60,165 nucleotides of DNA from Candidatus Margulisiibacteriota bacterium (GTDB taxonomy: Bacteria > Margulisbacteria > Marinamargulisbacteria > UBA817), in contig JADHOE010000003.1 in the NCBI GenBank assembly GCA_016779165.1, positions 1-60,165 of the forward strand, in the 5' to 3' direction. The notes under the pieces are model-generated. The model worked only from the letters and a program-made list of their open reading frames with translations, was not told the DNA's origin and searched no databases. Position 1 is the stretch's first letter. Each line of letters begins with the position of its first letter. The translations under genes were made by a program, and so were the position numbers. Positions 808 through 4,377 of this stretch are shown here, piece by piece.

Positions 808-981
808 TTATTCATTTTTGACCCACCGCCGATACAACGTATGCCATTCATCCATAAACGATACTTTGCCTTGGGTATTAAACCGATTGGGCTTTTCCTC
901 ATCATACATTGGTGCAACATCGGCATTAAACGCCACGTCCAATGTTGGTACCGGTTTTTCCTTTCGCTTTTTTTGTCCCAT
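808..981 (-). CDS. Small hypothetical protein, 57 aa (below the ORF-track cutoff)
   Basis: Manual translation MGQKKRKEKPVPTLDVAFNADVAPMYDEEKPNRFNTQGKVSFMDEWHTLYRRWVKNE*. A GGGGGGA SD-like run lies just upstream of the ATG at 981, and the ORF fills the gap in front of glyQ on the same strand. Confidence 0.55.
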   Translation of the reverse strand: MGQKKRKEKPVPTLDVAFNADVAPMYDEEKPNRFNTQGKVSFMDEWHTLYRRWVKNE

Positions 982-1131: not shown

Positions 1132-1359
1132 ATGTTTCGACTATTTGACGCTTTGGTTCTAGTAACATCACTTTCCACATTTGGGTTATGCATTTATGTG
1201 TACATCACAAATGGCGTAACCGATGCCTTATTTATTGGTGTATTCGGAATTTTTATTTTGACATTAAGCATTTACGTTAAACTTCTTCGCATTGTTCATT
1301 TTGTGCTATACAAAACTCTTGATCAATACGAAAAAAATGATGGAGACACTTATGGATAA
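1132..1359 (+). CDS. Small membrane protein, 75 aa, two hydrophobic segments
   Basis: Strong SD AGGAGG just upstream of the ATG; two hydrophobic stretches; its 3' end overlaps the next start (ATG 1352). Confidence 0.72.
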   Translation: MFRLFDALVLVTSLSTFGLCIYVYITNGVTDALFIGVFGIFILTLSIYVKLLRIVHFVLYKTLDQYEKNDGDTYG

Positions 1360-1885
1360 AACAGAAATCATTGTTGCCGGTATTTTATTCTTTAGCTTAG
1401 CCATCACTGCCTTTTTACTCACCCTGATTGAATTTGTAAACATGGATAAACACCCCGACAAATATAAAAACCCACGATATAAAAAATCATTAAAAGGAGC
1501 ATTAAAAATGGCAAAAAAAACAAAACCAGTATTGAAAGGAAGCATCGCGGCAAAAAAAACAACCACCAAAAAAACGGTAGCCCCTAAAAAGGCAGCGCCT
1601 AAAAAAACCGTCGCCGCTAAAAAAGCAAGCACCAAAAAAACGGTAACCCCTAAAAAGGCAGCGCCTAAAAAAACCGTCGCCGCTAAAAAAGCAAGCACCA
1701 AAAAAACGGTAACAGCTAAAAAGGCAGCGCCTAAAAAAACCGTCGCTGCTAAAAAAGCAAGCACCAAAAAAACGGTAACAGCTAAAAAGGCAGTGGCTAA
1801 AAAAACCGTCGCCGCTAAAAAAAGCGTAACCAAAAAAACAGTAACACCCAAGCGGGCTGTGGGCCGATCAGCCAAACGAAAATAA
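1352..1885 (+). CDS. Histone H1-like Lys/Ala/Thr-rich repeat protein with an in-frame N-terminal transmembrane segment; second start at 1508
   Basis: ATG 1352 (GGAG at 1342-1345) gives MDKTEIIVAGILFFSLAITAFLLTLIEF...; the in-frame ATG 1508 (AGGAG at 1495-1499) gives MAKKTKPV... followed by KKTVAPKKAAPKKTVAAKKAST repeats. The composition resembles chlamydial Hc2 / AlgP-type histone-like proteins. Confidence 0.8.
   Translation: MDKTEIIVAGILFFSLAITAFLLTLIEFVNMDKHPDKYKNPRYKKSLKGALKMAKKTKPVLKGSIAAKKTTTKKTVAPKKAAPKKTVAAKKASTKKTVTPKKAAPKKTVAAKKASTKKTVTAKKAAPKKTVAAKKASTKKTVTAKKAVAKKTVAAKKSVTKKTVTPKRAVGRSAKRK
1568..1849 (+). repeat. Coding tandem repeat, 66-nt (22-aa) unit, four full copies plus a partial fifth
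   Basis: Units start at 1568, 1634, 1700, 1766 and 1832; consensus KKTV(T/A)(P/A)KKAAPKKTVAAKKAST; near-identical at the DNA level. Confidence 0.95.
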
Positions 1886-2281: not shown

Positions 2282-3445
2282 TCATGAACATTCACCCGCA
2301 TATCGGCATGCCAAATCAAGCACCATGGCCCCAACAAACATGGTGGCATCATCGGCATAAAAATCAGGGGTATGCACGGGTATAAACGGCCCCCCTGCTT
2401 GTTTTGCTCCAAACCTAAAAAACCATGCTGGAAAATGCTGGGCATACACCCCAAAGTCTTCAGACGCCATGTTGGGTGCAACCAACCCCACGTCACCATT
2501 GGGGCCAAGCGCATCGTGAATCGCCCGTCGGGCAACTTGTTCAAGTTGTGGATCATTTTTAATGGCTGGGGATACGGGCTCTATATCAACATCAACCGAA
2601 CTAATGGTTGCCAACCCACTCAATGCACCATGAATGGCCAGCCGTTTTTCAGCACTCAAACATCGAATTGTTCCTTCCAAAACACCGGTATCTGGAATAA
2701 TATTATGGCGATCGCCGCTGTGCAGTTGGGTCACCGTTATCAAATTGGTGGCATCGCCTAATTGGTTGTTTATTGCATCTATAGCCAAACATCGCTCAGC
2801 GAGCGTTGGAATGGGGTTATGGCCTTCTTTTGGGCGGGCAGCATGGGCCGATTTGCCATGCACGATTAATTTAAACCGGTCTGAAAACGATGATATCACC
2901 CCGGGGTGAAGCACCACCTGCCCAACATCGTAACGTCGGTCCACATGCCCACCAAAGATTGCTGTCACATTGTTTGGCAACAATCCCGATGCCATGATCA
3001 TCTTAGCCCCTACACCCAATTCTTCAGCTGGTTGAAACACCAATAGCACATCGCTTGGTGGCGGTGATTGGGACAGCAATCGTGCCGCCCCAATGGCCCA
3101 GGCCATGTGAACATCGTGGCCACACGCATGCATCACCCCAGCATTCACCGACGCATGGGGCAAGCCTGTTGCTTCCTGAATCGGAAGCGCGTCCATGTCT
3201 GCCCGAAGGGCAACTGGCGGCAGATTGGAATCTTGCCCAATCAGTCGAGCAACAATCCCTGTGCCCACCCGTTCAATCCATCGGGTATTGCAGTGTTTAA
3301 GAGCAGCAAGCAAACGCGCCTGCGTCTGTAATTCATTATGAGATAGCTCTGGATGCCTATGAAGGTCACGTTGCAAGTCAATCAATTGCCGCTGAAGCAT
3401 GTCCGAAAAACAATCACCAATTATTTTTTTTAACTTGGAAGGCAT
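2282..3445 (-). CDS. M20D family amidohydrolase
   Basis: HRHPELSHNE, ALRADMDALP, MHACGHD, FQPAEE and SEDF motifs. Confidence 0.93.
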   Translation of the reverse strand: MPSKLKKIIGDCFSDMLQRQLIDLQRDLHRHPELSHNELQTQARLLAALKHCNTRWIERVGTGIVARLIGQDSNLPPVALRADMDALPIQEATGLPHASVNAGVMHACGHDVHMAWAIGAARLLSQSPPPSDVLLVFQPAEELGVGAKMIMASGLLPNNVTAIFGGHVDRRYDVGQVVLHPGVISSFSDRFKLIVHGKSAHAARPKEGHNPIPTLAERCLAIDAINNQLGDATNLITVTQLHSGDRHNIIPDTGVLEGTIRCLSAEKRLAIHGALSGLATISSVDVDIEPVSPAIKNDPQLEQVARRAIHDALGPNGDVGLVAPNMASEDFGVYAQHFPAWFFRFGAKQAGGPFIPVHTPDFYADDATMFVGAMVLDLACRYAGECS

Positions 3446-3567
3446 GCATTAAGTATAACAAAGCACCAGCGGCCCTGCCGAGAACTATGCCGCAATTGAA
3501 AAATGAAATATAAAAAACTAAACAATCGATAATAAGTAAATAATTTTTCAGCGATGTTTCAACCGGA

Positions 3568-4377
3568 GTGGGTTCTCAAAGTTTAAACGCCTCACCTTCG
3601 AAGGTGAGGGTCGGCTTAAGCCCCTTTAATGCTGTCAGTGGCACGGTGGATATCGCCTCCATTGACCCAGTGCTTGGTACTTATGACTACGAAACAATAA
3701 GCGACGATTCAAATGAATCCGGTGTCAACATTCGTTTTTACAAGGTTAATACGGAATCCGAAACAAATAAGAGATATGTTACATTTAAATCGGTTGACCA
3801 CAACTTTGAATGCGGATCTGCTACGGAATCTTCAGATTGCGAAACAGATGAAATAACAGGGTACATATGGAATCAAGTGATAAACATAAATAATAATACA
3901 ATCAATGGAAAAATTAATCATTCAAGCATTGTTTCGTCTTACATATTAGATCCCACACAAGAGCTTGAATATAGAAGTTCCGACGCACTTAAGGTTAAGA
4001 ACCATGATGACTCATATGCAAACGGGCTATCCAGCATCACCCTTGGTACGAATCGAAATCAGTGTAACTATTCTTTTACCAAAAGTGACTCAGATTCAGG
4101 TAATGGTGTGATCCAGTTTACATCCTGCCCATTGACCATTACTGGCTACAGCTCATCCAATGAAAAACAAAGGTTTAATGGGGCAATAAATGATGTATCA
4201 ATTACATTTAACATCACTGATTTTGATAATGAAGAAAACTTAAAAAATGACCCACGCTTTACAATTGAACGACGATTGTACAGTAGCACTGGCTATCACA
4301 TTGGTTATTTTAAACTCAACATTGTAAATGGGGGATTTTCAGTTGTTGATTTAAATAAAAACCCATTTACAAACTAA
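3568..4377 (+). CDS. Hypothetical Ser/Asn/Thr-rich protein, possibly 5'-truncated, AT-rich
   Basis: 269-codon open frame with a GTG start; in-frame stop at 3541-3543 just upstream; no recognisable family motif. Confidence 0.6.
   Translation: MGSQSLNASPSKVRVGLSPFNAVSGTVDIASIDPVLGTYDYETISDDSNESGVNIRFYKVNTESETNKRYVTFKSVDHNFECGSATESSDCETDEITGYIWNQVININNNTINGKINHSSIVSSYILDPTQELEYRSSDALKVKNHDDSYANGLSSITLGTNRNQCNYSFTKSDSDSGNGVIQFTSCPLTITGYSSSNEKQRFNGAINDVSITFNITDFDNEENLKNDPRFTIERRLYSSTGYHIGYFKLNIVNGGFSVVDLNKNPFTN

Follow-up and report, generated by a model that had tools for sequence, protein, structure and literature searches.

The window analysed here is a stretch of 60,165 nucleotides (nt) from an uncultured marine bacterium of the Marinamargulisbacteria (Candidatus Margulisiibacteriota bacterium, lineage UBA817; assembly GCA_016779165.1, contig JADHOE010000003.1). 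Near its beginning lies a gene in which a short membrane peptide is continued, in the same reading frame, by a long lysine-rich tail that resembles histone H1. This gene, further called gene B (1352–1885, forward strand), follows and slightly overlaps a second small membrane gene, gene A (1132–1359, forward strand). The conservation of the fused form makes it highly probable that gene B encodes a genuine, selected, membrane-anchored polycationic protein and, since the fusion is real and conserved, its product probably keeps DNA, or some other polyanion, attached to the membrane. A more complete mechanism can be envisaged, in which the conserved product would be a membrane-anchored H1-like protein that arose when gene B gained a disordered polycationic tail of about 60–190 amino acids (aa). 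The tail would bind DNA non-specifically via its S/T/A-PKK and AKK repeats and would keep nucleoid DNA attached to the cytoplasmic side of the membrane, with the product of gene A as a probable partner in the complex. We consider this full mechanism, including the DNA tethering, moderately likely.

Organization and conservation of the fused gene

Gene A runs from ATG 1132 to a TAA that ends at 1359 and encodes 75 aa with two hydrophobic segments, predicted to be transmembrane (TM) helices; its Shine-Dalgarno (SD) sequence, AGGAGG, is located at 1122–1127, 4 nt ahead of this ATG. For gene B, the start codon is ATG 1352, which is preceded at 6 nt by GGAG, and the frame is free of stops up to 1885, giving a predicted membrane-anchored product of 177 aa with an isoelectric point (pI) of 11.0 and 55 Lys and Arg against only five Asp and Glu residues. 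The stop of gene A and the start of gene B share 8 nt (ATGGATAA at 1352–1359). A first-pass annotation of this DNA had described a hydrophobic segment, opened by ATG 1352, that reads without a stop into K/A/T/P repeats and whose start is overlapped by a small membrane gene at 1132–1359, and both observations are borne out. The 8-nt overlap ATGNNTAA is kept in relatives, and the same arrangement of the two genes occurs in G002, G003, L040 and L044.

These relatives belong to a set in which G000 is the genome of the window itself (1.15 Mb, 71% complete, with the window as contig C27), G001–G003 are other species of the same genus, L044 is a sister species of G000, and L040, L041, L044/P0002 and P0003–P0006 are metagenome relatives, L044 and P0002 being counted as one. 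Within the species of the window, the junction between anchor and tail (NPRYKKSLKGALKMAKK) is identical in three independent assemblies, that of the window included. The other two are distinguished from the window by nothing but the number of whole 22-aa units: the protein has 111 aa in GCA_029976745.1 (contig JAPOLZ010000363.1) and 133 aa in an ENA contig, as compared to 177 aa in the window. The repeat copy number is thus still variable within the species. Outside the species, no stop interrupts the frame in at least 10 more relatives (G001–G003, L044/P0002, L040, L041, P0003, P0004, P0005 and P0006), and the linkers that connect anchor and tail in these organisms are wholly different in length and sequence. 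The first-pass annotation had proposed to examine whether relatives keep the fusion, and among the relatives within the genus no stop was found between anchor and tail.

The substitution pattern points in the same direction. Over the first 45 codons of seven orthologues, pairwise differences number 144, 66 and 410 at codon positions 1, 2 and 3, respectively, and their concentration on the third positions of the sense frame indicates that this is the frame under selection. Between G000 and L044, with a synonymous divergence (dS) of about 0.88, the ratio of nonsynonymous to synonymous divergence (dN/dS) amounts to 0.02 in the anchor, as compared to 0.33 in the aligned part of the tail, whose final 22 residues are conserved. 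When gene A is combined with the TM part of gene B in a tree, all long-tailed forms fall into one clade (support 98/97), apart from the stand-alone forms that are described below.

Predicted membrane anchor and topology

The predicted TM helix of gene B comprises residues 6–26 (IIVAGILFFSLAITAFLLTLI; 1367–1429, forward strand), as indicated by hydropathy, AlphaFold2 and the codon-position substitutions. Residues 6–29 are strongly hydrophobic (maximum of 2.56 on the Kyte-Doolittle scale with a 19-residue span), and AlphaFold2, run with a 10-sequence alignment, predicts a helix from residue 4 to 33 with block-mean pLDDT (predicted local distance difference test) values of 78–90, the remainder being coil with pLDDT around 50. 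The helix is followed by a conserved juxtamembrane motif, E-F-V-N-M-D-K-x-P-D-x-Y-x-N-P-R-Y-K-K (1430–1486, forward strand), which was recognized from invariant columns and by profile searching; it marks the point at which the stand-alone peptides of other families terminate.

Charges are distributed very unevenly over the two sides of the helix. The N-terminal flank, MDKTE, has a side-chain net charge of about −1, while the C-terminal flank (NMDKHPDKYKNPRYKK) carries 6–7 Lys or Arg residues within 16 positions, after which 43 more Lys follow. As far as can be judged from sequence, a cytoplasmic location of the tail is the only topology that matches this distribution, in agreement with the earlier proposal that the basic flank would keep the repeats in the cytoplasm by the positive-inside rule. 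Gene B would then encode a single-pass peptide with about five residues outside and the C-terminus in the cytoplasm. The product of gene A, in which a C-terminal motif K-L-x-R-I-V-H-F-V-L-Y is invariant, would form a hairpin of two TM helices, and A and B would be translationally coupled small inner-membrane proteins.

Relatives of the anchor and origin of the tail

No Pfam or NCBIfam family matched gene A, the anchor of gene B or a small 57-aa gene nearby (see below), even at E values up to 10. Nevertheless, the anchor can be assigned on sequence grounds to a family of small peptides and is no arbitrary TM segment. A 45-residue profile of the anchor, searched against 1.84 billion representative proteins, retrieved 26 members, nearly all of 41–60 aa, which share E-F-x-K-M-D-K-x-P-x-x-Y and have tails that are short and basic, or acidic; long tails were confined to the vicinity of the genus of the window. 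Gene B of the window shows the characteristics of the family, a single TM helix followed by E-F-x-x-M-D-K-x-P-x-x-Y, with 17 invariant columns in six sequences.

In other families of the class, gene B follows gene A as a stand-alone gene for a peptide of about 50 aa. This peptide terminates in NPRYKKK in G039 and G043 and in GPISKKKK in the more diverged G042, whereas only gene A is present in G033 and G024; gene A itself was detected in 9 of the 55 genomes of the class. Unusual start codons were encountered in this family. The stand-alone gene B of G039 (L005, 1630–1645, reverse strand) has an apparent ATT start 7 nt after AAGGAG (taaggagaaagaaaATTaaccca), and no suitably placed ATG, GTG or TTG was found for it, while gene B of G001 likely starts with TTG.

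The long tail may have arisen by repeat amplification of the peptide's own basic tail or by fusion to a downstream H1-like cistron. Intermediate forms exist: gene B of L047 encodes 71 aa with a basic tail of 26 aa in the same three-gene arrangement, and the P0006 protein has 92 aa. Such intermediate tail lengths suggest gradual growth of the basic tail rather than fusion of cistrons. Across the relatives, the tail varies in length from 26 to about 190 aa.

More distant relatives of the pair were found in cytochrome oxidase operons. In three higher-GC bacteria (L045, 2512–3180; L054, 222–891; L055, 469–1340), the order of genes is COX2, an A-like gene, a gene for an 87–88-aa protein and a B-like gene, and in L045 a whole COX1-COX3-COX4 operon precedes the A/B-like genes. 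The profile of gene B detects the oxidase-operon peptides with hmmsearch E values of 1.6e-5 to 6e-4. The 87–88-aa protein is a natural fusion of a B-like TM segment to an A-like hairpin (hhalign E 1.5e-4 with the B profile and 1e-12 with the A profile). These peptides are homologous to gene A and to the N-terminal 45 residues of gene B and have the same A-then-B order, but they are 57–59 aa long with acidic or mixed tails and are encoded directly after COX2, whereas the version in the window carries an H1-like tail and is located beside glyQ and queD. Judged by position and homology, they look like unannotated small accessory proteins of the heme-copper oxidase.

A possible connection to respiration is also seen within the Marinamargulisbacteria, where the A/B pair adjoins heme A synthase in family f19 and is located just downstream of an NDH-2-like gene in G042. 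In the genus of the window, A and B are not near oxidase or heme A synthase genes, and COX1 is on another contig (C37). The presence of COX1 is not discriminating, since it was found in 45 of the 55 genomes of the class, including that of the window. The A-type heme-copper oxidase of the Marinamargulisbacteria is thought to have been laterally acquired (PMC6349859).

The natural B-A fusion, the 8-nt overlap and the presence in each protein of an invariant motif that is predicted to be cytoplasmic (KLxRIVHFVLY in A, EFVNMDKxPDxYxNPRY in B) together suggest that A and B act jointly at the cytoplasmic face of the membrane. A 67-aa protein-library fragment (P0026), in which the C-terminus of gene A runs directly into gene B (NGEDNGKVQTIIAGILFF), may reflect either a true read-through that fuses A to B in nature or an assembly error of 1 nt in the overlap.

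Putative internal translation start

A second possible start is located at the junction of anchor and tail. The first-pass annotation had pointed to ATG 1508, in frame and 52 codons past ATG 1352, as a start with a good SD sequence, and indeed AAGGAG at 1494–1499 is followed after 8 nt by this ATG (site 1494–1510, forward strand). In the window and at least two relatives, such an AAGGAG-N8/9-ATG would also let the tail be translated alone, as a soluble protein that in the window has 125 aa and begins with MAKKTKP (1508–1885, forward strand). Production of this isoform in the organism of the window is, from the sequence features, about as probable as not or slightly more so. The contrary explanation is that AAGGAG-N8-ATG is left over from an H1-like cistron that was once separate, or results by chance from Lys, Gly and Glu codons, and that only the anchored form is made; we regard this as tenable, if on balance somewhat doubtful.

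The rarity of the site argues against chance. In the long open reading frames (ORFs) of the same genome, AAGGAG occurs at 4–11 nt before only 10 of the 6795 internal in-frame ATGs (0.15%), so that the site exceeds what is expected by chance. It is kept in L044 (dS about 0.9), and the much more distant G001 has AAGGAG-N9-ATG in another codon phase and with other residues (KGA instead of KE), in a linker that is otherwise unalignable; retention of the site with different residues and codon phase indicates constraint at the nucleotide level. The RNA around the site is A-rich and unstructured (minimum free energy −4 kcal/mol, z +1.5), which favours initiation, and a strong, exposed SD sequence followed by ATG normally leads to initiation in bacteria. 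Gene B was also examined for plus-strand promoter-like sites that could give a separate short transcript, and none was found.

The distribution of the site favours the relic or chance explanation. A convincing ribosome-binding site (RBS) is present in G000, L044 and G001, but G002 keeps the ATG with a degenerate SD sequence, the linker of G003 has no in-frame ATG, GTG or TTG, and no methionine occurs at the linker in L040, L041, P0003 and P0005. On the tree, this pattern requires two gains or several losses. Furthermore, the 21 nt preceding the ATG differ between G000 and L044 at two positions where about 2.6 differences are expected, which is conservation not significantly above that of the TM region. 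The intermediate tail lengths, which favour gradual growth over cistron fusion, may be counted on the same side. The proposal that the repeat domain has its own start is thus only partly supported, by the site in three of these lineages. Since the internal start is missing in several relatives, the membrane form is the conserved product, and a soluble isoform would be restricted to certain lineages at most. It is plausible in G000, L044 and G001, but no general property of the family.

In L040, a separate H1-like gene (3279–4099, forward strand), preceded by its own TAAGGAG-N8-ATG, follows immediately upon the stop of the fused gene. Its frame is interrupted where a poly-A run is shifted by 1 nt (GCTAAAAATCCTCTCCT as compared to GCTAAAAAGTCCTCTGCT in the next repeat), probably a homopolymer error in this pilon-polished assembly, which judging from the contig name is probably based on long reads.

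The H1-like tail and its ligand

From residue 53 onwards, gene B consists of 34% Lys, 22% Ala and 17% Thr and contains five 22-aa units. These are encoded by a 66-base-pair tandem repeat array (1545–1848, forward strand; 4.6 copies, 92% matches) with units of the type AAKKASTKKTVT(P/A)KKAAPKKTV. In the AlphaFold2 model the tail is disordered, with no secondary structure and pLDDT around 50. An 11-residue amphipathic lipid-binding helix in the repeats was considered and dropped on the basis of reasoning by hand, since lysines would cover most of the helical surface.

Like Hc2-type proteins, the product of gene B combines tandem repeats rich in Lys and Ala with a strongly basic pI (Lys 34%, Ala 22%, pI 11.0), and profile matches were obtained with three families, all below the curated cut-offs: Pfam PF07382 (HC2) gave 28.6 bits with the full protein and 27.8 bits with the tail (cut-off 40), NCBIfam NF038052 gave 19.8 and 21.3 bits (cut-off 135), and NF038053 (hist_H1_lk_Burk) gave 24.7 and 31.2 bits (cut-off 80). 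By these measures the tail is H1-like in composition and repeat style, and no member of the Hc2 or Burkholderia families. The first-pass annotation had taken Hc2/AlgP-type repeat proteins to be soluble DNA compactors. As a rule for H1-like proteins this does not hold, since Rv3852 combines KAAK/PAAK repeats with a TM anchor (PMC8233713).

Searches for further H1-like genes were hampered by the low complexity of the query. A search of the class with the tail only and a search with the L040 H1-like protein returned almost nothing and missed even known orthologous tails; because composition-bias correction hid these, tail-query searches are unusable for establishing the absence of other H1-like genes. 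A genome search with PF07382 also missed the tails of G001–G003, and two DNA patterns for KK-spaced repeats recovered only those of G000 and G002. In the 71% complete genome of the window, no second H1-like ORF was found, the sole other match being ribosomal protein S9 (C28, 6999–7586, reverse strand), which has a Lys-rich N-terminal extension of about 65 aa (DKKPKKSVAVKKAATKK). Free-standing H1-like genes do occur elsewhere in the class, such as that for a 98-aa protein of G036 which starts with MATTVKKPAAKK.

The strongest support for DNA as the ligand is indirect and comes from a sister genus. In G005, a 307-aa protein (L039, 3743–4666, reverse strand) is encoded beside the same M20 amidohydrolase gene that neighbours A and B in the window. 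Its N-terminal TM segment matches the profile of gene B (hhalign 92%, E 7e-7) and contains the identical hexapeptide ILFFSL, and its K/P/T-rich tail carries three KRPVGRPKK motifs, with an AT-hook-like GRP core, exactly 65 aa apart; gene A was not found in the G005 genome. The sub-threshold but specific matches to Hc2/H1-like profiles and the free-standing H1-like genes in the class may also be counted in favour of DNA.

An unlikely but serious competitor is an anchored polycation with another ligand, candidates being ribosomes or mRNA (cf. Oxa1/Alb3 and some YidC tails), polyphosphate (polyP; cf. AlgP) and acidic phospholipids. Basic C-terminal tails of Alb3, Oxa1 and YidC insertases bind ribosomes (PMC8733628), and the H1-like AlgP organizes or associates with polyP granules (PMC9239181). 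Docking of ribosomes for co-translational insertion would suit an oxidase accessory peptide, and the distant homologues of A and B directly after COX2 in three oxidase operons, as well as the f19 pair beside heme A synthase, fit with such a role. The tail is disordered and appears to be selected mainly for charge, in view of its dN/dS of 0.33 and variable length, and in the COX-operon relatives the tails are acidic, so that the tail seems an exchangeable accessory. However, the 22-aa repeats resemble the H1/Hc2 models and not insertase tails, and the GRP-core motifs of the G005 protein are typical of minor-groove DNA binders, although extended AT-hooks can bind RNA. Furthermore, free H1-like genes exist in the class, one of them directly behind the fused gene of L040, and the cassette in the genus of the window is not near any oxidase gene.

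Several other observations weigh against DNA tethering as proposed here. The resemblance of the tail to Hc2/H1-like proteins may be compositional only, as the curated cut-offs were failed, and a tail with a net charge of about +50, as in the window, would bind any polyanion, be it rRNA, mRNA, polyP or acidic lipids. The fast evolution of the tail in length and sequence implies that little beyond charge may be selected. Since HU is present in the genus (G001), the fused product is not needed as the main nucleoid protein and would be an extra one. Neither of the two genes, A or B, was detected in G004, another genome of the genus that is 89% complete. Finally, the AlphaFold2 model of the natural B-A fusion reached only a pLDDT of 67 and a predicted template modelling score (pTM) of 0.44, which is too weak for conclusions on helix packing.

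Alternative explanations for the fused frame

Two other explanations are both very improbable. According to the first, the hydrophobic segment would be a cleaved signal peptide or an N-in anchor, and the basic tail would be exported for a periplasmic or surface role, with ligands such as the outer membrane, peptidoglycan or extracellular DNA. The N-terminal position of the segment and the occurrence of K/A/P-rich repeats in some surface proteins are compatible with this, but the features of a Sec signal peptide (a positive n-region, an h-region of 7–15 residues and an AxA site) are lacking: MDKTE is not positively charged on balance, the hydrophobic stretch, at about 24 residues, exceeds the length found in Sec signal peptides, and no AxA-type cleavage site is present. 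Moreover, with 6–7 Lys or Arg directly after the segment and 55 in total, the positive-inside rule strongly disfavours export.

According to the second, the fusion would have been introduced by sequencing or assembly, or two independent genes would have been joined by a recent, neutral loss of a stop. Homopolymer errors are easily made in this A-rich stretch, an apparent poly-A frameshift occurs in the downstream H1-like gene of L040, the repeat copy number varies between assemblies, and the peptide is known as a stand-alone gene in other families. Nevertheless, the identical junction in three assemblies, the open frame in at least 10 diverged relatives with unlike linkers and the codon selection practically exclude an assembly error or a recent neutral loss of a stop. 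The fused forms are also monophyletic, the tail is under constraint (dN/dS 0.33) with a conserved C-terminus, and relatives that lack the internal start can make the tail only as a fusion.

That the real gene would be the antisense ORF at 1306–1875 (reverse strand; 189 aa with FLAATVFL repeats) can be dismissed even though this frame is open in every relative and was called as a gene on L040, since substitutions sit on the third positions of the sense frame, which has a conserved SD sequence, start and coupling to gene A and continues the stand-alone peptide family, and an open antisense frame is an expected by-product of AAA, GCN and ACN codons.

The L040 call is an observation in its own right. 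At 2687–3187 (reverse strand), automatic annotation chose the antisense hydrophobic FLxxxVFL frame over the Lys-rich sense frame. Similar genes have likely escaped notice in databases or are annotated incorrectly there.

Neighbouring genes

Apart from glyQ, queD and the M20 amidohydrolase gene, the neighbourhood of A and B in the window includes a small gene for a protein of 57 aa (808–981, reverse strand). It is divergent from gene A, was recognized by its conservation in relatives and ends in LYRRWVKNE, with F-x-D-E-(W/F)-x-T-L-Y-R-R-W-V-K-N-E as its C-terminal pattern. This gene accompanies A and B in every relative with a tailed gene B for which upstream sequence was read (G001–G003, L040, L041, L056 and L047), and in G002 it is still beside gene A though glyQ is not adjacent. 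It may therefore be the third part of an A/B module. In L017 (2185–2723, forward strand; SCGC AG-343-D04), three tandem copies about 181 base pairs apart are located upstream of gene A; each opens the same ORF, and copies 1 and 2 encode identical products of 48 aa.

Comparison with known systems

The closest analogue is Rv3852 of Mycobacterium tuberculosis, annotated as 'H-NS', in which KAAK/PAAK H1-like repeats are tethered to the membrane by a C-terminal TM anchor (PMC8233713). In both cases, a single polypeptide unites K/A/P repeats of the H1-like type with a TM anchor; the likeness is one of analogy rather than of family membership, and homology is not expected. The order is reversed, however: the repeats of Rv3852 occupy the N-terminal part and its anchor the C-terminal part, whereas the anchor of gene B is formed by residues 6–26. 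Furthermore, Rv3852 is reported only from slow-growing mycobacteria, and the description of it makes no mention of a partner gene with two TM helices, a link to oxidase-operon peptides or an internal start (PMC8233713).

Other H1-like proteins share the type of tail and differ in what it is attached to. Hc2 of Chlamydia, AlgP of Pseudomonas and the H1-like proteins of Burkholderia and Bordetella have K/A-rich tandem repeats, a pI above 11 and a disordered structure, but lack a TM segment, and the tail of gene B differs from them in a 22-mer rich in Thr and Val that remains below every cut-off. In the phasins PhaF and PhaM, as in AlgP, a tail of the H1-like type acts as an all-purpose 'sticky end' by which another cell structure is attached to DNA or polyP, in their case linking granules to the nucleoid (PMC7590123, PMC9239181). 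The other end of these proteins binds polyhydroxyalkanoate (PHA) or polyP granules, whereas in gene B it is an integral membrane helix.

The positioning of bacterial chromosomes at the membrane is mostly ascribed to transertion or to specialized proteins such as Noc and RacA. Noc of Bacillus subtilis, regulators of the ToxR/CadC type and the plastid proteins PEND and MFP1 bind DNA while attached to a membrane, but they do so with folded, mostly sequence-specific domains that are unrelated in sequence to gene B, and Noc is attached by an amphipathic helix instead of a TM helix. To our knowledge, directly membrane-anchored histone-like proteins have barely been studied, with Rv3852 as the main example.

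A histone-like protein tethered by a TM helix was thus already known. New in the present case are the N-terminal position of the anchor, the recruitment as anchor of an oxidase-operon peptide with a two-TM partner, the series that leads from tailless to long-tailed peptides, the parallel form with AT-hook-like motifs in a sister genus and the internal RBS.

Implications

The gene family described here flags an unannotated pair of small membrane proteins that is tied to cytochrome oxidase operons, and illustrates that gene callers can miss such genes or choose the wrong strand. It also offers a natural experiment, in which closely related uncultured marine bacteria carry one and the same peptide without a tail, with a short basic tail, or with a long H1-like or AT-hook-like tail and, in some of them, with a putative built-in soluble isoform.

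A more far-reaching scenario, which we consider improbable, is that an oxidase accessory peptide was turned into a connector between chromosome and membrane, coupling nucleoid DNA or nascent transcripts to respiratory sites. One gene would then give both a tethered and a free H1-like protein, and species without the internal start would compensate by a separate H1-like gene, as in L040. If this is true, the internal RBS would have been retained from the fusion or selected after it, and the ratio of tethered to free protein would set the share of the nucleoid that is held at the membrane.

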